NCBI GenBank assembly: GCA_010356995.1
Contig: ML996690.1
Span: 79,101-143,100, forward strand
Origin: Trichodelitschia bisporula
Lineage: Eukaryota
DNA length: 64,000 bases
Direction of reading: 5' to 3'
Below are positions 1 through 48,532 of the stretch, one piece after another (the first letter of the stretch is position 1; each line of letters begins with the position of its first letter). Below the pieces are notes generated by a model. It saw only the letters and a program-made list of their open reading frames with translations. It ran no database searches and was not told the origin of the DNA. The translations under genes were made by a program, and so were the position numbers.

Positions 1-2930
1 TGCAGCAAGGCATCCCAGTTGTCCCTAACCTGCGGTAGTCCGGGTATCCACAGAGGCATTTGGCTTTGAAACCGCCTTTTTACAAGACTTGCTGTCGGGG
101 AAAATACCAACGCGCTGCAATACGTCTGCAAGGGAGCTAGTTCGATGGCGGACCGGTTGTAGAGGACAAATCGTTTCATGTCATGAACAAACTCCGATAG
201 TCGGGGACACCTCTGCGCCTAAGCCAAGTATCAGCCAAGTATCCCCACTCTGCTTTACGTCCAGCTTACCGATATCATGGACTCCAAAGACACGATGGCA
301 TGGAACCCTTCGGAAACCTTTTGCATCCATCCAAGCGCCTCAAGCCAATGAAGGAGATGCTCCTTCAGGAACTGATGAACTTCACCGTCATCGTTGAGCT
401 GAGATCCACTCTTATGAAGATGCTGTATCCAGTAGAGGCATGAATATTGCTTCTCAGGATGGAGGGAGCCTTCAACCTCATGACTGTCGACCTCGGTCTT
501 GAGTACTCCAGGCCGACCTATTCCAAGCATGTCTTGCGTAAGGAAGCCAGACATGACCTGTATGCATTTCGTGGCAAGGGCTCGATGCGCCCCCTCTTCA
601 TCAACCCAGAGACCTGTTTTCCCGCTTCTCCCTGGGTTGAGAAGGAAGTCACGAAACGAAGGGTGATGTAAACGGAGTGCGTCACCTGGTTCCTTTCGAA
701 TGTCCTTTGGAATGTCCAAAATGGCGTGAAGATCACCCAGTGCCTGTCCCACATTCTGGCCGAGTAGCCTGCTCAAGGACGGGATGGAAAGTGAATCGAA
801 CAGGATCACGATGCCTCCAAGCAGTTCCTTCAATGTGGATCGCACCTCCTCTGCATCATCGCCTTCATAATTGGTAAGGGATTGGCGAAGAACAGTCGCG
901 TAGATCTCGTCGAGATGCTGCTCTGGCCCTTTCACAGTACTGGGGTTTTGATCGAGGATGAAGCCTAGTTTCTTGGGAGCCAATATTCTTCCTTGTTCAA
1001 CAAAACGGCATGCAGTTTCAGCCCAGATGAACAGACCACTAGCGTTCCGGACAAGTGAGTCGATGGCTTGCTCGCCTGGCCAATCTTTGTCAAAAGAGTG
1101 TTTGCGGGCTAAACGCTCAAGCTCGTGCCGTAGGAAGAAGCGGATATCATTGTCAACAGTCGACTTCTTAATGTCGTGGAGCACAAAGTCCAGGTGCTCG
1201 CTTGTTGGCATTTCGGATAAAGGAAACCGGATTGGCACTTCAGGTCTACTCGTTAAAAACAGCCGGAGCCGGGTTTCCTTCAGCAACTGAAAGAGATTCA
1301 GAATTTTCCCTATGCCATCCTCGCCCTCGCATTCGTCCAGGGCATCGACCACCAGGATGTACGGAGCAGAGGAGGTGTCGCCTTCGAGCTTCGACATGGG
1401 ACTGAGGACGAGATGATGCCACTGACTGCGGATAGGCTCTTCAATGATGGTGTCTCGCTCCTTCAGAGCCTTGTAGAGAGACCGCTTTGCCCCCGACACA
1501 TTGTCTGCAAGTTGCGCTGCGATGCTTGTCACGAACTTGCCGGCATGCCGGACATCTGCGCCACTTCGCGAGAAGAAGAAGCTGGCTCCAAGCTTTCCCT
1601 TCTGAAAACATTCGGCGGCCACAGTTTGAGCCACGGTGGACTTGCCGGTGCCAGCTAAACCACTCAACCAGAAAATATTTGGCGAGTTCTCTCCGTCAGC
1701 CCAGGCGTAGATCTCTTTGAGAAGTTCGACCCGGGTACCAATCAGGCAAGGCGCCTTTTCCCGCTCGTATGGGTTGGATGGTGTGTCTGCGGCCCTGGGC
1801 AAGTTTAGGAGCATTGCCGGCGCGGGTGGATCTTCTGGTATCTCGACTTTGACCGGCGGGAGCAACAACAAAAGCTCTTTAGCGTACGCTGCCGCCGTCC
1901 CCGCCGCGAATGGCTGCCAGCTCTTGTTCTTGTGAGAGTCCGAGTAGTCGCAGATTCCCCGCACAGGCAGACATGGAAAATCGTTCATCACCCCGGCGGC
2001 TTCCATTTCGAAGCACAGGACGCCTCCGAGTTTCTCACTGACTTTGTCTCGTTCCTTGGCATCGCGCATGACTTGATTCCCCGAAGCGATCGTACCATAG
2101 TGAACCAAGACATGTTCACCACGCGTCTGGCGCCGCACGCTATATTCTTTCTTGCAATTATTGCAGTTTTCCTCTTCCTCCTCATGGTTGTACGCAGGGT
2201 CGTATAGGATATCTGGCCCGGCCTTGTCGCGTGCGAAAAGAGACTGGCTGCTGAGCTTTGCAAGGTGATGTAGGAAACCAACGCTTCTTTTCAGATGGCT
2301 TGCTTTCAGACTCTTCAACGCGCTCAGCAAGGCCTTTGGGGGCGCGTTCAGGAATCCAGTCCGTTCAACCCCGTCCGGCCTGGTCTTGCCCAAGTCGTAC
2401 TGAATCACTCCGCCACAATCCTTGGACGGCCAGCAAACAACAACGTCCCCAAGTCGGATGTCGGCTTTTGCGCTCGGCACACCGCCTCCGATGCCGACCA
2501 AGACGCCGAATTGAACCGAAGTGAAAGTTGACTTCATTTGAGCAACCGCCGAGGCCGCCGAGTTTGTGCCCGTCAGCCCCAAGACCATGACGACCGTATT
2601 GTGTTCGCCAACACGGCCGAGCGTGTAGCTATTGGGATCGGACGCGTCCCGGGGGAGAGGTTGGTGCTCTCCGTCGAGCATCTCCTGGGCTGCTGCAAGT
2701 TCAATGTCAAGCGCGCAAATCCACCCTACTGTGTAGTCTTCGTGACGAAGTCGGCGGGTTGGCTTTCTGTTGGTGGTTCTCTGGAGGGCAAGTGGTAAGG
2801 TTGAGGTCTGGCTGACGTTGCTCGCGGGGGCAGGTGTGGTGGTCTCACCAGCAACAGGTGAGGAGGGTCGTGAAAGACTGGAAGAGGCATGGAAGCGGCC
2901 CCGTGTCCGGATCCGCTTTGCAGGTGGCAT
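1..2930 (-). CDS. Fungal NLR-like protein: PNP_UDP_1 effector domain + NACHT + (predicted) WD40 repeats; HET-E-like; 3' end outside window
   Basis: PNP motifs DYTVGWICAL..ELAAA and MEAAG...RGICDYSDSHKNK.WQ; Walker A GLAGTGKST; Walker B LVVDALDEC. Likely start ATG at 2930 (MPPAKR). A GT-AG intron at 269-219 leads into LSEFVHDMKRF..APLQTYCSALVFSP..NWDALLQ, the linker that precedes WD40 repeats in HET-E-like proteins. Confidence 0.9.
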
Positions 2931-3522
2931 CTTGGAAATAATGATGCTAGTCAAGAAATTGGGGACTTGTGAAAATGCAGGAGTGGAACTGGAGGTTAAA
3001 GGCGAGGCTTTGGGGCTTCGAGCTGAGCTCAACTGCGGGGCAGAATGCCAAGAATGAGGCTGTGAGCTGTCGGGCGCGGAGAGGACGAGATTGGAGGAGA
3101 CACAGCCACATGCTACGGGGCATCAAGTTCTCCTACCAACTGATCAGTTCATAGACGAAGACTTCGCTGGAGGACATACCCGGTTGTTCATCCATGTTGC
3201 ACCGCCCACGCTGCTTGCGTCGTCTATGCCCGCGTCGTAGGTGCTGTACGGGATATCGAGACTGACCAGGGCTCGAGCATAAACAGGCTCAGGAGGATGC
3301 CAGAGTGGCGGTCATGGTTTTGGGTGGGAGTTTGGCAGCGTAGTGAGGGACAGACGGAGCATATAGACTGTTCTGATGGAGGAGATATGTTGAATTTGTG
3401 GCGGCAACCTGGGGTGGCTGGAGTGGAGCCAGGAGAGAGGGGTCGTTTCCTGGCGATGTATATAGTCAGCTCACTTCCTACTGCTAGTCAGTCAAGCAAC
3501 TCAGTCAAGTTCACACTTCATT

Positions 3523-3961
3523 TTAACACTCAGAGGCTAGATCCAAAGAGATGAACTATACAAAATCAGTTTTGAGTTTATCAAGATGAGTCTCTTACTG
3601 CAAGAACCCGCTTCCTGTCCTCAAGGCTCCACATTCGGTGATACGGCATTTGTCTTTGAGCGGCGTGCCACCGGTCATAGTAAGCGGTAATAGTTATCTC
3701 TTTTCGGATTCCCGTTTGCGTGTCCCGAGTCCATTTCATGAACAACATAACCAGCTCAGGGTCAGCCTCCGCTATACACTTTTCAGGGTCACTGAAAAGT
3801 GCATCTCCATTAGGAATATCGGAGGCTCGTGCAGCTTCACAGAACTCTTTCCATTGACGGTGGATTCGGCTCAGGTTGTGTTTTGCCGATTTCGAGTATC
3901 TTGTCTCGACTTGGCGGCTTTTCAGCCTAGAGAGAAAGTGAGCGAAGTTTTGCGTCGACAT
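3523..3961 (-). pseudogene. Truncated DUF3435-like tyrosine recombinase (Starship captain) N-terminal fragment
   Basis: RYSKSAKHNLSRIHRQWKEFC..DPEKCI..LFMKW..IRKEITITAYYDRW resembles the N-terminal core-binding region of DUF3435 captains. A phase-0 GT-AG intron (3598-3556) leads to FISLDLASEC-stop. No catalytic domain is visible in the window. Confidence 0.7.
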
Positions 3962-4286
3962 TTAGATCGAAAGCAGAAGGTTGACTTCTGAACCCGCACT
4001 GGTCTTCGGGATATTTAAGTCAGCGCATTAACCAGTTAACCTCCCAGCCCTCCTAAGGACCATCTAACAACGCCCCTACCGAAGGCATCTAAGGACGCCA
4101 TATTCGTCGTCCTGGAGTTTTGAAAAATTGAAAAGCAGAATCGACAGTTCCCTTCGGTAGTCGCGCGCTTAATAATGACAACTTTAATTGGACAATATTT
4201 GCCAAGCCTGATGACAAAGGATGTATGACGCTAGTCTAAATTCAGAGTTTTACTAAATTGGGAACGCGGACGTAGGTGCAGTCTCT

Positions 4287-4303
4287 GACCTATGGCCGTA
4301 TGT
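4287..4303 (-). pseudogene. 5' fragment (17 nt) of a 5S rRNA gene; probable insertion junction
   Basis: Minus strand reads ACATACGGCCATAGGTC, identical to nt 1-17 of the intact 5S at 4598. The exact direct repeat is 20 bp (4287-4306 and 4582-4601), after which the sequence diverges. Confidence 0.75.
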
Positions 4304-4480
4304 GCTGGGCTGTAGAGGCAACTAAGTAATAGCCAGCGAAAAACCAACAGCCTCATCAAAAGAGCATAAGCACACCTCCAAGGAGGTCTCAGGCTAAATT
4401 CAGCTTGCGTTGAGCAACGGACCAACCCTCACCCGACCAGCTAGCCGAACAGAAGACTCGCCGAGTGCAGAATGACAAAA

Positions 4481-4598
4481 ACATACAGCAGTTGGGATTC
4501 GCTGCTGGTCACCCACGCAACTACTAATCAACCGGTTCGCTGTTTAACTTCAGTGAGCAGACGGGGACTGGTGTTCTCAGCGACCTATGGCCGTATGT
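4481..4598 (-). rRNA. 5S rRNA (dispersed copy, 118 nt)
   Basis: Minus strand ACATACGGCCATAGG...TTAGTAGTTGCGTGGGTGACCAGCAGCGAATCCCAACTGCTGTATGT followed by a T-run Pol III terminator. The 5' and 3' ends are complementary (helix I). It matches the typical ascomycete 5S pattern. Confidence 0.95.
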
Positions 4599-5031
4599 GC
4601 TAGAAAGGGCTCGGAGCGAAACTCTGTTCAGATGCCACAAAGAAGACTGGGAAGGGATGCAAACGCGCCTTCTTCGGAGCACAGAACATCCTGGCACTCG
4701 AGATCCAGGGGATTGAATACGGGATGCCTCGATGGCTCAATAAAAGTCAAGCTTCCATCCTGAATACGTGATCGTCAGCAATGCTTAATCAAACGGGAGT
4801 GCTCAACCCAATGCCAGAACCTCAAGCGCCGCAATTGGAAGGCAAGAATGACAAGGTGCAAGCGATTCAAATGCTACAAGGACCCAGAATCAGTGCCCAC
4901 GGTCGCCGGAACGAAAATAGCCAGCCGAACGCCATTCGATCTACAGCGCTATCGTACAGAACCAAACACTGACTTTTAACCCTACTCCTCATATTTCGAG
5001 CACACCGTCTAACCCGTTCAGCTCCAAGCAA

Positions 5032-5984
5032 CTACCGTTTTCCCGCCAACCGCCTGCCCTGCACCTCCGTCAGAGCCCGGCTCCCACTCACAAACGCCAC
5101 AACACCAACAACGCCCGCAACCGGCAGCGTCTGGAACAAATTCCAGCTAGTGTAGTACGCGAAGAACACCGCTTCCATAGCCACCACGCTGCCAAAGAAA
5201 GCAGTCGAGCTGATAGGAGCTGCGTTCAGCGCAGCCGGCAGGTCATTCAGATTCGCGCCCAGCGCCGCCCATGCGCCTAGCAGTATCGGCAAAGCCGACA
5301 TCACGGCGAGCAGGAACACCAATGTGATAACCTTGGGCGGGGACTGGGGGTCCGCGCGGAAGGTGTGCGTGATGTGCGGCTGAGCGGCGTAGCGCGGTTG
5401 CGCGGGCGGGGAGGCAAGCGGAGCGGAGGGGTCGAGGCTGATGGATAGGGAGAAGGCGGGGCTTGCGTAGGGCGTGGATGCGCCGAAGGAGCCGATGACG
5501 ATCTTCGCGGTGAGGGGTTTACTGGCGCGGAGGAATTGGGGGGGTAGGGCGGCGTGGGTCTGGGCGGTTAGCTACTTATGTCGATGATTGAGACAGGGTA
5601 CGTACGAGGTCGACCTTGGCCTTGCCGCTCTCCTTGATGGTGAACGGGTATGATTCCTCCAGGCCCGTGGTCGGCTCCACGAGCGTCAGGAAGGCCTGAT
5701 GCGGCTTGCGCGCCTTTCCACCGTTCGTGACGGTCAGGAGAAGCTTGAGGGCATCGTTGGAGCCCAGGCTAATCGGCTTGGAGAGAGGAGCAGCGGGTGA
5801 GAGCCTGTGGTCTGTTAGTTGTGCTCCTAATGCTGCGGCGCGCGTACTTCTCCTTCACGCTGCCGCCGACGCCAGCTCCTTTGCCCTGCACAGCGACGGT
5901 GGCATCCTCGAAGCTCCAAGATGCGGCCGAGACGAGGCTCGAGGTGAGCAACGCGGCAGAGAAAAGGTTCGTGAATAGGCGCAT
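5032..5984 (-). CDS. SWP1: Oligosaccharyltransferase delta subunit / ribophorin II (3 exons)
   Basis: Signal peptide MRLFTNLFSAALL; motifs KPHQAFL and ITHTFRADPQSPP; C-terminal transmembrane helices ending RLAGKR; two GT-AG introns. Confidence 0.9.
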
Positions 5985-6343
5985 TGTAGTGGTGATGTTG
6001 GGGACAGGTGCTGGTCAGCCTGGTTGAGCATTCGTGGCTCGATCGAGCTGCTCGGGAGAACCTATCACCGTGGCCGTAGGTCATGTGATTGGCATCGCTA
6101 CTTCAAATAACAGCTCAACTGAAGCATTTCCCTCTCCACATCTTCGCATTGATCATGTCTAGCTAGGTTATGCCTATCCATCTGCCATTTAACACCATTC
6201 GGACACTGAAATACTGGCAGACGCTCACTGAGCGCCATCTCGACAAGCCTGGGCCGATTCCACACCCAACCCGAGCGCATTCCCAACTATTTCCGACACA
6301 CGCGTCGCATCACTTCACCTACCCACAAGTCTAGCTCCACCAC

Positions 6344-6600
6344 AATAAGCTCAATCAACCTACAAATCGACATGGAAGACCCCGCGAGACACTGATCATG
6401 ACTAAGCTTTCAGAAATCCGAGCCGAAGCTTGAACCAAGTCTACAGCACGCAAGCATGTCCGGGACGTTGCGGAAGTCCTTAGAATCTTGTGTCTCTTGC
6501 CGGAATCCCCTTCCTACAAGAAACCGTTTCTGAAAGCGCAATCATGATAAGCGTCTCGTGGGGGCCTTGCATGTCGATTTGCAGGTTGACTGAGCTTGTT
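6344..6600. repeat. Fold-back / MITE-like element with ~73-bp imperfect inverted arms
   Basis: 6344-6416 (aataagctcaatcaacctacaaatcgacatg...gctttcagaaa) is the imperfect reverse complement of 6527-6600, with a ~110-bp spacer. Confidence 0.8.
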
Positions 6601-6632
6601 GATTGAGCTTGTTGAGATAACTAGTTGTGTCA

Positions 6633-8494
6633 TCAAAGGGGCAGCGTGATGTACTTCTTCAGAAATTCCAAGGCTTGGATGACCTTCTCATCTTCGTAGC
6701 GCCGTCCAACTAGCTGCAGCGAAACTGGAGCATCGCGATAAGTCTCCGGTTCATCTGTCGCAATTAGTACCGTCCCCTAAGGTTACAAGGCTGCCGTTCT
6801 TACAAAGCTTGTAGTTGTACTCATCCATCCCATTGCTGCGGGGGGTATACTCTTCTTCCTTCACGTCAATCGCTGGATCGACTTGCGTAACCTTCTCCAT
6901 TAGCACCTCTCCGGCCCCAACTGGAAAACCTACCGGAAATACCAATGCCGGGTAATCCAGCACATTCCACTGCGCCGTATATCCCCAGTACCTCGCACAA
7001 TCCAGTGGGGGTGCCGTACCAGGTCCAACAGGACACAGGATGACATCTACCATTCCTATCGGGACCCCATTCTCGTCTGTTCCCGTCGCAGTCGCGTTCC
7101 ACAGCGCGGCGTATTCTGCTTTGTACGCCTCGCGCCTCATCGTCCAGTCCCACACTTCGCTCACGCTGAGCGCTTTAGCGTACGGGTTCTCGCGTACAAT
7201 CCATGAACTGAGCGGCCGCCATGGTTCGCTGGATGCCTCGATCGCGGCGCTGGTTTCCTTTCCTCCGTCGGCGAAGTACAGACTAGCCTGGATGGGCGTT
7301 AGTCAGTGGCATCATTCCCTGCGTGTACTCACAATAATCTCCCATGCTTGGAAATGCTTGTACGGCTTCCACGTCACAACCTCCACGTCTGGCGCATCCT
7401 TCAACTTGCCCACTACCTCCCGCAGCGCGCGCAGAATCGGAGGATGCGGCTTCACCACCTCATCATCCCAGAGAACCGCAACCTTCAACCGCGGCTTCCC
7501 GTCCGTACCAAGCGGCAGTTGATTCTCTTCCTTCCACGGAAACGGCAGCAAACAAGGCTGACGCAACCACGGCTTCCTATCAACCAACGTCTTTGCAAAA
7601 ATCCTAATCCCCTCCAAACTCGTACTCAACGGCCCAATAACCGGCACAACATGCTCCTGGCCCAACATCGTCGCTATGCCGCCCTCATTCGGCAGGCGAT
7701 AACTCGTGGGCCTGAGTCCATACACCCCGCAATTTGCCGCCGGGCTGCGAATACTCCCCCCAATATCCGTCCCAATCCCCAGGACACTCCCCCGCATACC
7801 CACCAGCGCCCCTTCGCCCCCGGACGACCCCCCGGCCGTTAGTTTGCGGTTATACGGGTTAACCGTCTCGCCGTAGATATTGCTGCTCGTCTCCAAGTGC
7901 ATCAGCGTCTGCGGCTGCGTCGTGCGCGCATAAATCACCGCCCCGGCCTGCTTGAGCAGGTCCACGATAAGCGCGTCCCGCGGCGCGACGTTCCCGATCC
8001 ATGACACGTAGCCTGCGTTGTTGTCCAGCCCCTCGAGGCCGAGGTGCTCCTTGACGCTAATGGGTAGACCGTGGAGCGGCCCGATTGGCTTGCCGTGCTG
8101 CTTGTAGTAGGCGTCGAGTTCGGCAGAGCGGGTTAGGGCGGAGGGGAGCAGCTCGGTTATGCAGTTTGTCTAAGGTGTAAGTAGACGAATGAGTTGGGGG
8201 AGGCTCCGTGATTACCAGTTTTGAGGCCAGGGCGGCGCGACGCAGGAAGGCGGTTGTTACGGCGGCGCTGGTGAGGGAGCCGCTTGCGAGGCGGGCGATA
8301 AGGGTTTCCGGCGCGAGGGACGTGAGGGTGAAGTCCGACTCTGAGAGATACTGAGAGGGGAGGGCGGTGACATTGAGGGGGAGGGGGGAGGGGAGGGGTT
8401 TGGACGGGAGGAAGGGCGCGATGGAGGAGGCGAGGTGGTCTTGGAGTTGGGCGACGGTTTCTTGCCAGGTGGAGAGCTGTTTGAAGGGCGGCAT
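6633..8494 (-). CDS. Amidase signature family protein (acetamidase-like), multi-exon
   Basis: GGSSGGEG and GIGTDIGGSIRSP amidase signature; PLHGLPISVKEH; C-terminal LQLVGRRYEDEKVIQAL; stop codon at 6633-6635. Confidence 0.92.
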
Positions 8495-8920
8495 GGTGAT
8501 GAATTGAAAGTAAGCGTGCGAATGGGGTGAATGTGTTGAGCTACGGCGTCCTTTATGTATGTGAAGGCTGAATTAAGGACCCCTCTCGATTAGATATCAC
8601 CGTGTAACCCCTCCTGCAGTCGCGATAGCGGGGTTCAGTTCATTTCCCTGGACGGCAGCTCGTGGTGGGTGCAACTGCAGCTGCAGGGTAACTGCAGGTA
8701 AGCTTACCGGATGAAGAAGGGCACATTACACACCAGCCGGAATGATTCCGCGATATGTCTAGGATTTGATATCAAAGTCTACGGGCAGCTAAAAACGCCT
8801 AACGCCATGCCTGTATGCAGCCACCTGTCTCTAGCCTTTCATCCAGTCATCCGTGCTTCAGATCCGCAGTAACTCCGCCATTGGGCAGAAAGTAGCCGAT
8901 TCACACAACAGCCATTCCAA

Positions 8921-11900
8921 CTAGACATCCACCCCACGAACCCTCCTCCGTCTCTCATTAGGCGTCTCCCTAACGCCCCCCAGCACCGCCCGCCCCGAAA
9001 CATCCGAAGCAGATCTCGTGCGCGACTCACCGATCAACCTAGCAAAAACCCCCCCCTCATCAACCAACTCCTCATAACTCCCCACCTCCACCAGTTCCCC
9101 CTTATCAAGCACAGCAACCCGATCCGCCCCCCTCATCATCCCCCTATCATGCGTAACCGCTACAACCGTCATCCCCACCCCGCGAATCAACCCATACAGT
9201 ACCGCCCTCAACTCCGCCGCCGTCGCCGCATCCAACGCACTTGTCGCCTCGTCCAATACCAAGACCTGGGGATTCCTAGCCAGCGCCCGCGCGATCGCAA
9301 GGCGCTGCAGTTGGCCCCCCGAAAGCCCGATCCCGCCGTCCCCGATCGGCGTGTCGTAGCCTGCTGGGAGCTGCATGATGTACTCGTGGATGCCCGCCAG
9401 CGAGGCCGCGCGCATGGCATCGATGTACGTGTATGCGTGGGCTGCGCGCGGCAGCCCGTAGAGAATGTTATCCACGACGGAACCGGCGAAGAGCGTTGGG
9501 GATTGCGGGACGAGGGCGATTTGTGCACGGAGGGTGCGCGTGTCGAGGTGCTGCACGTTGCGGTGGGCGACGAGGATGGCGCCGCCGTCCGGGGCCAGGG
9601 TGTAGAGTTTTACGAGCAGGGCGGCAAGGGTGCTTTTGCCGCACCCTGAGGTCCCGACGATGGCGATGAAGTCACCCGCGTTGATCGTTAGGTTGAAGGA
9701 CCGGAGGACTGGGTGCGCGGGCCGGGAGGGGTACGCGAAGCTCACGTCGCGGAACTCGATGGGTGTGGCGGAGGATGGTTGGGCGAGGCCGTCGTGCTCG
9801 GGGGTTGGGGAAGGGAGGTGTGCGAGGCGGAGGAGCCGCGTCGCTGAGTCTATGGCTAGGGAGAGGTTGGGGAGGTTAGCGGCGACCATGCTGGCGTTTG
9901 ACATGGCCATGAGGAGTTGGGTGAAGACCTGGAGGATTTTGGAGAGCTCGAACTCGCGCTTAAGGAGCAGGACTGAGCCGTAGTGGAAGAGGATGGCAGA
10001 GATGTAGGGGACGGTTGAGGTGGACATGCCGTGGAAAATGCCCATGGAAAGGGCTCGCTTGATGCCCACTTTGAGGACTTCTTGCGCGGCCTTGCTGTAT
10101 TCATTGCGGAAGTGATATTCCAGGGTGAGAATGCGGATTGTCTTCATGCTAGTGACAGCCTCGGTGAATTTGGCGTGCGCCTTGTTCTCGACGTCGGCAT
10201 GGCGCCCGTTCATCTTCTGGGCAATCCACTTCATCCCCATCGTGGTTAGCACGGGGAGAGGTGCGCAGGACAGCAAGACCAAAGTAAGCTTCCAGCAGCT
10301 GACCAGGCTCCAGATCACGGCTGTAGAAATCATCACAACGATGACCAAGTTGCTGCTCAAATAGCGGCCGACTATCTCTTCCATATGTTCCCCGTGAGCA
10401 TCCAGGCAGCTGACCAGCGAAGATACTGCATTGTCTTCCTTTTCAAAGAACTCGCGGGGCTGTTCTAGGAGATGCCAGAGAGCAAGCTCCCGAATCCGGT
10501 TCACCCACAGTTGGCCGCAGTACTGCATGGCGGTGGTGCACAAGTAGAGGCTCAAGCCATCAGATACGCCGATTCCGATAATAGCCAGTGACCACTTCAA
10601 GGCTTTTTGCTTGCGGTCTCTGGGATCGTAGAGAGTGGTCAGGAGCTTGGAGAAGACGAACGCGAAGATGGACGTCATAGCTGCAAATACAAGCGACATA
10701 AAGAGACCGAAGATGCCAACGGTACGCCCCCAAGGGGTAAGAACAGGCCATATCGAGCGCAAGATAGCATGTAACGGAAGAGGCTTCAGGGCAGGAGTCG
10801 CCTTGGCCGAGTCTTTATCGTCCTCGAAGCTCTTCATGTCCTGAAGGTCGATTTCCTCGCTGATCATGGGCTCCTCGTCCGAGGGGCGAAGAGGAGCCTT
10901 CCCCTTCCCCTTGCCTGTTGAATGTGGAACAGTCCGCGATTTGCGGCGCTCTGCCGGCGTGGGCGTCTCGGGCTCGGAGCTCAATGGCGGGAACAGCGAC
11001 ATAGGGCGATGTGACAGCCCGGCGCTTCGCGGCAAGGTAGACCAAAGCGGCGACACGATGCTCGGAACGGCTGCCGAATTGCGCTCCGGGGTGACACCGA
11101 TTCTGTTAGTAAACATGCTTGGAACCAACGTGCTCGCGCGGGCTGATTGGCGCTCAGGAGTTTTCGGAGGTTGGATGGAGCATTTACGCTCGGGAATGGT
11201 TGGTTCCCTCGCAGCTGCCCTGGGGTAGGCGAGCAGAAGACGGCAGAAAGCAGCATTGTTAAGCAGCTGGAATCGCAGGCCGTACCCGACGACATGGCCG
11301 TCTTCCATGACGATGACGTTGTCCTTGGGGTGAATGCACGAAACATCGTGTGTAATAATCACAGTGTGCCTGTCCTCCCGGATTCTCCGAATAGACCACA
11401 TGAGGTTCTCTCTCGTAGTGGGGTCCAGGGCGCTAGTAGACTCATCAAGTATCAGAAACTCCGAATCCCGGATGAAGGCCCGCGCCAGGGCGATGCGCTG
11501 CCGCTGACCACCACTGAGCTCGCCGCCTCGAGCGCCAACGACAGTTTGGAACCCGTTTGGCATAGCCTCAATGTCATCTATGATCTGGGCTTGCGTGGCT
11601 GCGCGGCGGATGTCTTCCATCGTGACCTGACTGAGCGCTCCGAGGGCGATGTTCTCGGCAATCGTGGTGTTGAAAACGACGCTATGTTGCTCGACGAGAT
11701 GACAGGTCTTACGGACATAGTCGTTTCTCATGTCTTTAACATTGATGGTCCCGAGACCTACCATACCGGCCGCCGGCTCGTAGAGTTTCATCACCAACTG
11801 CCCGAGCGTGCTTTTACCTGAGCCGCTGGTGCCAACGATGAACGTAAGCTGCTTGGGGAAGCAGGTGGCACTGATCGCCTTGAGGACAGTTTTATCTGGA

Positions 11901-13151
11901 TTGGAAGGATATGAGAAGACCACCTATCAAGAGTAAGTTATTTGTCGGCAAGCCTTTTGGAGTATCTTACCTCATTGAAAATGATACTGCCCCCAAGCTC
12001 ACAGATCGGCCAGATCGGTCCAGTATCCCTGCCCAAGCGCCCGTTGCGGCTATCGAGCAAGTTGCGTAACTTAGTTCCAGCAAGCTTCCCCTTTTCCAGA
12101 GGGATGATCTGGGGGATGATTTGCATGGCTGCATTCGTCCCCAAAAGGATGGACCAGAACACTGTAAATACAGTCGCAGCGCCACCTGAAATTTTGTCGA
12201 CCAGCGTGGAGCCAAACCAAAACCCCTGAACGAACATGAGCAATACGCCCGCCTTGCTGACGCTACTCTGCGCGGCATTCCAGTGGACTTGGTTGCGGAA
12301 AAAGAGCGACGCCTTAGCAATCAGCTTCGCGTAAGAGAACACTTCCTGGTCCTGTCCGTTGTTGGCCTTGACGGCATCGATGGCAGTGAGCGCAGTGGAC
12401 GCTCGGCCTGATGCCAGATGGAGGGCCTTCTTTTGGGCTTCCGTGTTCGGGTGGATCTTCTTCGAAACCACTGAAATGATCCATACTAGCATGGGGATGA
12501 GGGCTGCCGTGACGAGGGTAAGCTTCCACGATAGAGCGAGAGCCATGATGTAGGCAATCAGCAGAGTGCTCAGGTCACGAATGACACCGCCCATGGAGAG
12601 AGAAGTGGCGTGTTGCATATCATCGACATAGCTTCAAAGTCAGCGGAATTTGAGTACAATTACAAAACTAACCTCAAGATGGCATTCGTGAGAGTGGTAA
12701 TGCCATCCGGCACTAGGTCGTACCAAGCAGAGTCGCGGCCTTCAAGCGCACGAAAGGAGAAGTGACGGGCCGAGTCAGTTTGCAGCTCGCCGAATGTCGC
12801 CCAGAGCATGAAGAAAGCACCGTTGACGAGCCATGCCCCCGCTCCAAGAAGAGCCAGCCAGATTAGCTTCTCCCGAATATGATGTTGGAAATCCTGATCG
12901 GATAACGAGCCAATGCCGAATTTGCCAAAGAGTGCGAAGATGCGCCCGAGCAGATACGCCTGCGCGGGTATGAGGGCGCCCGCAAGAATGGCGGCGAGGA
13001 TTGCTGGGACCAGAACCAGGAGATGACGCCGGGTTGTGAAGCCGAACAGCGACTTCCACTGAGCTTTGAGCGGAGCTTCTTGAGCGGCTTCTGGCGCGAT
13101 TGACAGGACTATACCCTGGTCTTTGCCCGCTTTTTGGCGACGGTAATCCAT
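8921..13151 (-). CDS. STE6: Full-length ABCB transporter, STE6/HST6-like pheromone exporter (3 exons)
   Basis: TMD-NBD-TMD-NBD layout. Walker A GTSGSGKST and GTSGCGKST, two LSGGQ signatures, Walker B LILDES and LVLDEA. N-terminal WKSLFGFTTRRH and a long linker, as in fungal Ste6 orthologues. Probable start MDYRR at 13151. Confidence 0.8.
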
Positions 13152-44568: not shown

Positions 44569-45072
44569 GTTGTCCCGCTCCCCCTCCCTCTCACTCCGAA
44601 ATCCTAATCTAGCCAGAGGTTAATTTGCTTAGATCTAACTTTTAATGGAATTTACGAATGCGCTCCCGCTGATTCTGCTGCTGTCTGCTGTCTGCTGTCT
44701 GCTACTTGATTCCTTCGTGGTGAGGCTCTTCCGCATCGGGTAGCATTCCGCATTACCCCTTTCGGCGGAGGCAGCTTTGTCCGCGTTCCTCACCCGTGTA
44801 CCTTGTCAGGTCCCTTTCAAACTCCAGGTACACCCCCGCATGCGGCATCGAGGAGCAATCGCGGAGTCTCTTTAAACTTTCGCGATGCCGCATGCAGAAA
44901 CCAGCCCGTCGGGGTCAGCGCTTATCAAGGCCAGATCCCCACCGGACTTCGTGATTTCCGCCATCTCGTTTGTTCGTTCGCCGCGCGCCTTCAGTTTTGA
45001 AACTCACTCCACCCATCGAACACACATCCTCAAACCACCAAGTCCAACCACCACCACCTTCGCACCGCAGCC

Positions 45073-48000
45073 ATGGCCCCTCCACTCCCAAATCCCCTCC
45101 CCCCAGGCCCGGCACCCACCACCCCCCGCGACCGCACCGCGCTGCGCATCCTCTCCAGCACAGAAACCTACGACCTCACCGCCGTGCTCGCCGCACACAT
45201 CGCCATGCACCCCACCTACACGCTCTCCCTCCCCATCAAACCCCCCTCCCTCCCCTCCACATCCCCCGAAGCCTTCACGGCGTCCAAAACCCTCACCCTA
45301 CCCCACGCGCACCTCCCAACCCTGCTCTCCGCCCAACCCGCGCTGGCCATGATGCTCCTCGACCCCACCATAACCCTGCCAAACCTGTACCTCCCACCTC
45401 TGTACATCTACCCCGCCTCGTCCCTCGCCCTAACCAGCGCAGGCGGCGACCCCGCCCTCCGCGCCTTCGAAAAACGCAACGCCCGGGGCCGCGAATTCCT
45501 CTACCAAACCATCGGCCTTGACGCAAGCGTCGACTACGCCCCAGCCAGCGATCTCGCCTCCCCCCAATCCGAACTCTGGCTCCTCGCCCCCGTCGGCAGT
45601 CTCCCGGTATTCCATTTCTGGTTCGACCGTTCCGTAGCCGGCATCCACTCCGGCCGCCCCGTGCGCATGCCTTTCCGCGATAGAGCGGATCCAGCATGCC
45701 GCACCGTCGCCGGCCGCCCCTGGAACTTAGCCTTCCGCGACGCAGCGCGCAGGGTAGGCCTGAAGGTGACGATGGCGGTGCCCGGCCCATTGGGTAGCAC
45801 AGCAGAGGACATATTCGCGCGGTATGCGCTCGAGATTCGGTTTCCGCATGTAGGGCGCGACGGGGGCGCGCCGCCTGGCTTCCCGCCGGGCTCCCCGCCC
45901 GAGAGCGATTCTCGCGGGTCGTCGGACCACGGGCCTTCGCCGCCGCGCCGCGATGGGCCTCCGCCTCGCCGGCCTTCTCCGTTGCCGCGCCGTGGTAGGC
46001 CGCCGAGCCCTTCTCCTTCGGCGCGCGGGGATGGGACGGGCCGGCCTTCTCCTTTGCCGCGCCGGGATGCGCCTCATCGGCCTTCTCCTTCGTCGTGCCG
46101 GGATGGGACGCACCGGCCTTTGCCTTTGCCGTGGCGCGATGGGCCTGCGAGTCGGCGTTCTGCGGCGGCGGAGAAGGGCGCGGGCGGCGATGCGCGTGCG
46201 AAAAGCAAGTCGGATAGCGGGTCTGTTGCGTTTACGGATGTCCTTGCGAAGTGGACGGAGGCGCGGGATAAGGGGATGGGGTTTAGGGAGTGCTGGGAGG
46301 CGGCGGATCGGGCTTCGTCGAGCAGGTCGGAAGAGGCGTATGAGGAGGTCGTGAGGCGGGTTAATCAGTTAAGGGATAAGGGGGTGGAGGATACGGAGGC
46401 GTTGGCATTGGCGGAGCACACTGTGGAGATGGAGAGGGGGATGTCTGAATCGAGTGGGAGGGAGGGGGAGGGGGAGGAGGATGGGGATGGGGAGAAGGAT
46501 GGGGGGGGGAGCCCGGAGGCTGACCAGAGCGATGAGGCTGACAAGAGCTCTGAGCATCCGACGTCGTCGGGCCGGTCTGAGAACACGCAGAACTCGGATC
46601 TGACGCCGTCGGAGCGCGCGGATGAAGTCATGCGGCAGTATAATACGGCGGTGGCCATGGGCTTGCGAGGGAGGGCAGCGTGGGAGGCGGCGATGGCGGC
46701 GATTGAGCCTTTCAGGATGCACGAGTACACGCCCCTGCCGACGGGATCGGAGGAAGATGAATGGGAACCAGCACCCTCGAGATCGGAGGATGATGAACCC
46801 ACACGACGCCGAGGGGTCCCGGTTCAGACTATCTTTCTGGAGGAATCGATCGACTACGATCAGATCCCCTGGGAGGCTGGATCGGTACTGTGGCATGTAA
46901 GGCGGAGGGGTTATGAGGGGGAGCCGCCTACGTTTCTCTGGCAGCAGATCATCAGGAGGCCCGAGGAGATCGGAAGGAGGCGGAGGGCTCGAGCTCGCAC
47001 GCCGGAGGCCAGGAACGAGCCGAGAACTCGCACGCCGGATATCAAGATGGAGCCTCGGTCTCGGTCTCGCACGCCGGACGTCAGGAACGACCCTCGCTCT
47101 CGCATGCCGGACGCCAGGAGCAAGTCCCGATCTCGCACGCCGGACGCCAGGAGAGGCCCAATCAGGGAGACACCCGATGAGATACCAGGGACTAAACGTC
47201 ACAAGGCGCGGGACGGCAACCCGCCCGATGACGACGACGACGATGAAGATGATGATGATGAAGACGACCCCCCTGAGGACCTCTCGCGGCCGAATACAAG
47301 GCGCCGGAAATCGCTGAGTGAGACGCGGCGCAAGGCCGCCGAGAAGGAAGAAGGTACGCATCCCCCTCGCTTCCCCGCTTGACAGTGTGCTAACCCCAGC
47401 AGCGGAGAAGAAACGCGCCAGTGAGGTCGTCGAGACGTTGGGTAAGGACCCCAAGCCCAGCCCCACGGCCTCGGAAGAGGACCTCGAGAAGGCGGGCATC
47501 AAGCCCAAGTCCGAGTCCGAGTCCCCGTCGATCAAGAGCGAGCCCAAGTCGATCAAGCGCGAGCGCGAGTCCACGCCCGACGAGCGACCGCCAAAGAGGT
47601 CCCGCACCAAGACCCCAGAGTCAACAGGCACCAAGCGCAAGGAATCACCAACGGCCGAGGAGACACCGCCCAAGAGGTTCCGGACCGAGACACCGAAGCC
47701 AAGGGAGCACGGCATGCCCACTCCACCCGATACGCAGCCCAAGGACAGCCCCCTCGCCCAGAAGGCGCCGGCCGAGACGGAGGACACGCCTTCGCGCCGC
47801 CGCCTCCGTCCGAGACCGGCCCCGGCCCCGGCCCCGGCCCCGGCCCGGGAGACTCTTGCGCCCAGGCCTCGTCGAGAAAGGTCGCCCAGAACCCCACGTC
47901 CCGGCCCCGGCCCGGCTCCAACACCCCCGGCCACAGCGCCCCCGGTCACAGCACCCTCAACCCCAACGCTTTCCAGCCACGTCCCACCGTCGCTCGACCT

Positions 48001-48532
48001 CGAGGGGTCCACCGACACGCCGCGCGTCATCGGACCCGATCCCGACCCAGGCAGGCGCGGGCTTGTGAAGGACAACCTATACGACCTGTCGTCGCCCGAT
48101 ACGCTACTCGGGCCACATGGCACGCCGCGGATGCCGCGAGACGTACAGGAGCAGACGTTCAACTTCCTGATCAAGGAGTTCGGGACGGAGCTGAAGCGGT
48201 CCGGCAAGGAGGCCGTCATGGCGGATTACCGGATGTGGCAGCCGCAGGACGCGAGGCGGCTGAATGAGGTGGTGCCGGTGTTCGGGCCGCGGAGCAAGCA
48301 GAGCGTTGCGTACAAACTTGCGTGCGGCGCCATGGGGTACAAGTACTCGCCTGTGCAGCGCGGGGATGTATTGTTCCTCCCCGACCAGGTGTACTCGGAC
48401 GACTCGAGCGATGGCGATGACGGCGGGGCCGGGCCCGATCCCAAGGAGGCGAAGTATCATGGGCCCAAGCCGCCGGACCCGACAGGACCCACGCACATAC
48501 TGAACGCTGAGACCATCAACTCGATGAAGTAG
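45073..48532 (+). CDS. Large, mostly low-complexity protein of unknown function (2 exons, intron approx. 47353-47399)
   Basis: Two long ORFs joined by a GT..CTAAC..AG intron. Predicted globular N- and C-terminal segments flank P/R/S-rich, acidic and basic repeats. Confidence 0.7.

Follow-up and report, generated by a model that had tools for sequence, protein, structure and literature searches.

Probable captain-side edge of a Starship-type element, dead and with an internal deletion, within a 5S rRNA gene of Trichodelitschia bisporula

Overview of the locus

The left end of a 64,000-nt stretch of the Trichodelitschia bisporula genome (the whole stretch analysed, here called the window) probably contains the 5′ junction, on the captain side, of a Starship-type element, now dead and with an internal deletion, that is situated in the second of two close 5S rRNA genes. 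Read along the minus strand, an intact 5S gene is followed by a 173-nt spacer, a 20-nt 5S fragment, a 325-nt leader, an ORF with the N-terminal part of a recombinase gene and an NLR gene. The features are listed below in this order, with the basis of each call in brackets; P0004 and P0006 are two related proteins described further on.

4480..4598, minus strand: complete 5S rRNA gene, then a T-run (Rfam RF00001 and sequence reading)
4307..4479, minus strand: spacer from the intact to the broken 5S gene, 173 nt, multi-copy in the source reads (read depth)
4287..4306, minus strand: exact 5′ fragment of a 5S gene, 3 upstream nt plus nt 1-17, the break following nt 17 (17-mer count, alignment)
3962..4286, minus strand: leader, putative 5′ terminal region of the element, 325 nt, multi-copy (read depth)
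3599..3961, minus strand: exon 1 of the captain stub, 121 codons, putative N-terminal pre-catalytic domain of a DUF3435 tyrosine recombinase (homology to P0004 and P0006)
3556..3598, minus strand: putative intron, 43 nt, GTAAGA...CTGAT...TAG (P0004 residues 122-130 resume at 3555)
3529..3555, minus strand: remnant of captain exon 2, 9 codons, FISLDLASE, homology ending at 3529 (tblastn with P0004 residues 122-130, 100%)
2931..3528, minus strand: NLR upstream region, the most abundant repeat of the stretch (read depth, contig breaks at 3528)
258..2930, minus strand: NLR main exon, PNP_UDP - NACHT/NPHP3_N, of a very large paralogue family (Pfam, read depth)

Intact and broken 5S rRNA genes

A complete 5S rRNA gene was identified at 4480-4598 on the minus strand with Rfam family RF00001 (91.5 bits, E = 2.1e-18, model positions 1-120 of 120), which was the sole Rfam match at the gathering threshold in the 64 kb. 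Direct reading of the sequence shows a T-run 3′ of this gene on the minus strand. The 17-mer that makes up 5S nt 1-17 was counted twice in the window (4287-4303 and 4582-4598), with 0.00 occurrences expected from 100 shuffles. The identity of the two 5S starts covers 20 nt when three upstream nucleotides are included (fragment at 4287-4306, 100% identity, E = 5.9e-6). Beyond nt 17 of the copy at 4287-4306 no 5S-like sequence was found, and no further 5S piece of more than 11 nt, a 5S 3′ piece included, was detected within the 64-kb window. The original prediction of an intact 5S gene accompanied by a second copy that ends after nt 17 was confirmed by the RF00001 match and the exact 20-nt identity, and the distance of about 325 bp that it gave from the fragment to the ORF also proved correct (3962-4286, 325 nt). 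The boundary thus falls within the 5S coding sequence, where an element targeting 5S genes is expected to have it, with the break after nt 17 and multi-copy DNA of element type beyond.

Structure and homology of the captain stub

The stub ORF (P0001) begins 325 nt inside the 5S break and is transcribed inward. An ORF of 3961-3523 had been predicted here; this extent was recovered for the spliced frame, in which removal of the 43-nt intron (3598-3556) carries the ORF to a stop at 3523 (131 aa), and not for the unspliced frame, which runs from 3961 to a stop at 3581 (126 aa). A single-sequence AlphaFold model of the stub ORF was poor, with a mean pLDDT of 59.1. Among contigs of the source reads, one variant of the leader lacks 147 nt, with a joint from 4066 to 4214.

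The assignment of the predicted peptide to DUF3435 failed in a direct HMM comparison, as the stub ORF matched no Pfam family at E≤1 and none even at E≤10. A phmmer search against 1.84 billion cluster representatives returned three matches, the stub itself and two repeat proteins. The latter, a Listeria-Bacteroides repeat protein and a coiled-coil repeat protein, were rejected as relatives and judged spurious, their scores being sums over repeats. None of 114 candidates from a word-index search was a longer relative of P0001, and tblastn of the stub ORF against plasmids gave no match.

Homology was found through a search among proteins of a length similar to that of the stub, which yielded two annotated paralogues. 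P0004 (215 aa, PF11917) is 85% identical to the stub ORF with 94% of the query covered, and P0005 (96 aa) is 90% identical. In hmmscan, residues 147-215 of P0004 aligned with positions 3-57 of the 418 in the DUF3435 profile (E = 2.3e-5), at a score of 24.0 bits that lies just under the curated Pfam cut-off of 25.8, as expected of a fragment. A longer protein, P0006 (714 aa), which was retrieved with P0004 as query, contains DUF3435 at 244.1 bits in residues 261-656. Residues 20-215 of P0004 align to residues 149-318 of P0006 (E = 9e-19), and the stub ORF itself aligns directly and colinearly to P0006 residues 151-212 (E = 4e-5). The chain from P0001 over P0004 to P0006 therefore bears out the label of captain-like ORF, the confirmation being transitive, and on this homology the stub ORF corresponds to the N-terminal domain, ahead of the catalytic part, of a DUF3435-type recombinase. 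In the ESM Atlas the top clusters near the stub ORF (0.96) carry the QRICH1 family, which is taken as a lead only; QRICH1 proteins hold a domain whose origin lies in Crypton tyrosine recombinases (PMC3212892).

When P0004 was compared with the window by tblastn, residues 1-119 were located at 3961-3605 and residues 122-130 at 3555-3529. Residues 131-215 of P0004 and residues 213-714 of P0006 had no tblastn match anywhere in the 64-kb window, P0006 being matched through its residues 151-212 only, and the window encodes nothing of the DUF3435 profile itself. The captain is thus truncated as had been predicted, its homology stopping at 3529, at about codon 130 and ahead of any catalytic part. An intact catalytic recombinase, which an autonomous element needs, was absent from the copy in the window. 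This copy, whose stub spans about 130 codons and lacks a catalytic domain, therefore cannot move itself.

Copy number in the source reads

Contigs from two runs of one sample, X1 and X2, which is probably the source of the window, were compared with it; in X1, 3543 contigs aligned to positions 1-12000. Among the X1 contigs listed, one covers 4572-9600 without error and another continues from 9632, at depths of 203-267. Over 1-4570 the X1 contigs are short and 80-99% alike, with a summed contig depth, which is not equal to a copy number, of 5,500-90,700. The summed depths in X1 were distributed as follows.

1-3200, eight bins: about 15,000-56,000
3201-3600: 90,686
3601-4000, stub: 5,524
4001-4400, leader: 6,771

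Thousands of short contigs fall in 1-3528, and their depths add up to about 75- to 450-fold that of single-copy DNA. Diverged copies of the NLR side are very numerous, whereas those of the stub and leader are clearly fewer, in the order of tens. The spacer is also multi-copy, with a depth of 1529.7 at 4458 versus a single-copy depth of 203.2 (X1). A contig of 178 nt over 4282-4453 with 22 differences (87% identity) spans both spacer and 5S fragment, and one X2 contig links 4312 to 4492, with just 25 nt on one side. No second copy of the spacer at 4307-4479, and none of any of the multi-copy stretch, was found inside the window. Everything to the left of about 4570 is multi-copy, and the boundary with single-copy DNA lies at the intact 5S gene.

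To the right of this boundary, the gene for ribophorin II (SWP1) was recognised by Ribophorin_II_C at 5035-5571 on the minus strand (E = 6.6e-35). It is accompanied by genes for an amidase, an ABC transporter, PBDC1, a ZIP transporter and DAHP synthase, and further on by those for an aldehyde dehydrogenase, NAPRTase and others, all single-copy housekeeping DNA. No Starship-associated family was found in the right flank with Pfam. The right flank being single-copy and the left multi-copy, the intact 5S gene stands at the border between both.

Two other regions of the right flank were recorded. Between SWP1 and the amidase gene, at 6343-6614, nested inverted repeats are present (41 nt at 88%, 37 nt at 84% and 17 nt at 94%), and this fold-back of roughly 270 bp may be a MITE-like remnant. 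The region 45001-48529 contains long overlapping frames on both strands (793, 618 and 404 codons) at 63-68% GC; no Pfam family was found for these frames at E≤1e-5.

A third run, X3, is from another organism (B), and 0.05 of the sampled words were present in it. Its contigs over window positions 46-4154 have a depth of 2-4, versus 331 for its own piece of SWP1, and are 87-96% identical to the repeat, and the single-copy flank is uncovered. These contigs are probably carry-over between samples; the alternative is a shared mobile element.

The NLR gene and its join to the stub

The NLR expected after the captain-like ORF was confirmed by its Pfam domains. The frame at 2930-258 on the minus strand (891 aa) contains PNP_UDP_1 (E = 1.4e-6), NPHP3_N (E = 1.8e-29) and NACHT (E = 1.8e-7). 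It crosses a GTAAGC...TAG intron (window 150-260) into a next exon frame at 3-179, which leaves the window at its left edge. The frame past this intron bears a motif typical of the linker that precedes NLR repeat domains.

Eight contigs in X1 and ten in X2 match the NLR side up to 3528 and then diverge from the window. Captain homology ends at 3529 and the contigs break at 3528, and two independent lines therefore place the join of stub and NLR upstream region at 3528/3529. The continuations of the contigs past 3528 are partly alike (consensus agreement 0.46-0.49, common start AAAAGCAAG), which points to an NLR upstream region that is longer in other copies and has here been joined to captain exon 2.

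In the source-read contigs, the NLR exon has in-frame indel variants of 12 nt at 691 and 3 nt at 1369, which suggests that the NLR copies are kept open as genes. A further variant has 3 nt (GAG) inserted at 3080, upstream of the NLR start codon. In the source reads the NLR side exceeds the captain stub several-fold in abundance; most NLR copies are therefore without a stub, and the NLR need not be cargo. Positions 3201-3528 have the highest depth of the region (bin of 90,686 versus 203 in X1), exceeding the coding part of the NLR several-fold, and may be a short, very abundant repeat or a common promoter block upstream of the NLR.

Comparison with known Starships

The definition of a Starship comprises an inward-pointing DUF3435 captain at the 5′ end, flanking repeats and cargo (Gluck-Thaler et al. 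2022, PMC9156397). NLRs are among their conserved passengers, typical cargo consisting of NLR, PLP, FRE and DUF3723 genes (PMC9156397). Clusters of 5S genes are Starship hotspots in A. fumigatus (PMC12153272), and 23% of 222 curated Starship insertion sites lie in 5S genes, at no fewer than, that is at least, five distinct target positions (PMC11162782). The present locus shares with the 5S-targeting Starships (families Enterprise, Arwing and Voyager, and Osiris of Aspergillus fumigatus) a boundary in 5S and an inward captain, as well as a nearby NLR as typical passenger and a site with more than one 5S gene (PMC11162782, PMC9156397, PMC12153272). It differs from those elements in that its captain is reduced to a stub of about 130 codons and the unit is apparently small and multi-copy, with one boundary within the window; the published family call for the P0004 paralogue is fam01 (Phoenix), outside the three families most tied to 5S.

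Voyager of Macrophomina phaseolina inserts 20 bp from the 5S 5′ start and carries NLRs (PMC9156397). It differs from the present locus in its size of 74-124 kb, its intact captain and its placement in family 10, whereas the P0004 paralogue is listed as fam01. The Voyager target string, at up to 3 mismatches, had 48 matches in the window versus 45.9 expected, none of them in 4287-4306 or 4480-4598. Membership of the Voyager family was rejected, the target string missing from both 5S copies and the paralogue being listed under another family.

In table S4 of PMC11162782, tribis1_534970 is listed as a tyrosine recombinase of fam01; it is linked to P0004 (locus tag 534970) by number only. A placement of the element in Phoenix (family 1) would rest on this published call for an 85%-identical paralogue, the stub being without the classifying domain. 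Phoenix-family elements are mainly linked with AT-rich sites (PMC11162782), and their target is given as TTTACA in Table 1 of PMC9156397. The junction described here differs in lying within a 5S gene, and the ±100 bp around the 5S/leader junction have 54% AT.

For the source species, the published starfish survey lists a tyrCount of 3 and an elementCount of 0 (PMC11162782), and two of the recombinase hits in its table are about 1.6 kb long. A junction at 5S nt 17/18 matched no published target site in the searched parts of the text and supplement of the same paper. 'Derelict' Starship regions have kept their cargo and lost a working captain, as at this locus; Derelicts are without any DUF3435 sequence, whereas the present locus retains the 5′ junction together with a defined N-terminal stub (PMC9156397).

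The possibility raised originally, of an undescribed element, is a weak one, as 5S-targeting Starships are already published (PMC9156397, PMC11162782, PMC12153272). The locus is probably a broken copy of an already published kind of element, belonging to a multi-copy, decayed family.

Origin of the locus

A Starship origin is favoured because the position of the stub, 325 nt inside the break, and its inward direction are those required of captains, and because a 5S gene breaks off behind its nt 17, with no such match expected by chance. The boundary of multi-copy and single-copy DNA at the 5S gene and a right flank of housekeeping genes only also count in its favour. In the proposed course of events, a Starship with a DUF3435 tyrosine recombinase recognising the 5′ part of 5S would have integrated site-specifically, leaving 5S nt 1-17 at the captain end; the remainder of the 5S gene would be expected at the far end, beyond the window. 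An internal deletion or recombination would then have taken the captain from about codon 130 on and fused the stub to the NLR upstream region. The product would be a small non-autonomous unit of leader, captain stub and NLR. Internal deletion in DNA transposons gives non-autonomous derivatives that retain their end regions. We infer that such a deletion in an NLR-carrying Starship would be the simplest route to the fusion of stub and NLR.

Position 4287 or thereabouts had been predicted to be the 5′ junction of a 5S-targeting Starship. The homology of the stub, its inward direction and the break after nt 17 support this prediction in part; what is weakened is that the element integrated at this very place. 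With a multi-copy spacer and a contig that runs across spacer and junction, the latter may have arrived as part of a copied block. The unit from spacer to NLR would in that case have formed once elsewhere and spread by ectopic recombination or segmental duplication, the junction at 4287 being inherited. Such an origin is unlikely, though by no means negligible. It would account for the excess depth of the spacer (1529.7 versus 203.2 at 4458 in X1) and for the 87%-identical contig over 4282-4453 that covers spacer and 5S fragment, and it agrees with an NLR family that is very large and has shared blocks. It does not, however, predict a multi-copy region that ends right at the intact 5S gene, and the captain has the position and direction beside the 5S break that are found in the published 5S-targeting pattern. 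The spacer, moreover, could be the common flank of a 5S subfamily: possible readings of it are such a flank in a small 5S cluster, comparable to the A. fumigatus hotspots (PMC12153272), a block copied from elsewhere, or a part of the repeated unit.

It is quite improbable that a truncated 5S pseudogene of other origin came by chance to lie beside an unrelated recombinase relic in a repeat-rich patch. The window contains one junction only and the stub is dead, and truncated 5S pseudogenes are reportedly common in filamentous fungi, an observation ascribed to Rooney and Ward in 2005. Against chance stand the 5S fragment, which is an exact 20-mer with a clean end, and the stub, which starts at a distance of 325 nt and runs in the canonical direction; depth is also similar in leader and stub (6771 and 5524 in X1), as expected of one unit. 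An origin in which the NLR unit is the mobile part, with its end at 3528, and was inserted into an otherwise complete captain whose rest lies to the left of the window would explain the sharp boundary at 3528 common to 8-10 contigs and the greater abundance of the NLR side over the stub. The continuations past 3528 are partly alike (0.46-0.49), unlike random insertion flanks, and a terminal repeat of the end sequence is absent from the window, which makes this origin very improbable. The preferred reading thus stays the captain-side edge of a Starship-type element, dead and with an internal deletion, that has the NLR as its putative passenger.

That the unit is a non-autonomous mini-Starship, trans-mobilised into 5S nt 17/18 by a full-length captain elsewhere in the genome, and that its multiplication to tens of copies has contributed to the spread and diversity of a very large NLR family, is decidedly unlikely.

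Significance

The locus places the 5′ junction of a probable Starship-type element at base level, after 5S nt 17, in a species that the starfish survey lists with recombinase genes and no element. The exact point at which the captain was cut and fused to the NLR gene is given as well. If the unit were trans-mobilised, it would offer a compact model of how Starships decay into small passengers and of how immune-receptor genes multiply. If the Phoenix call for the paralogue holds and the unit is indeed a mini-Starship, the junction would represent a further independent origin of 5S targeting.
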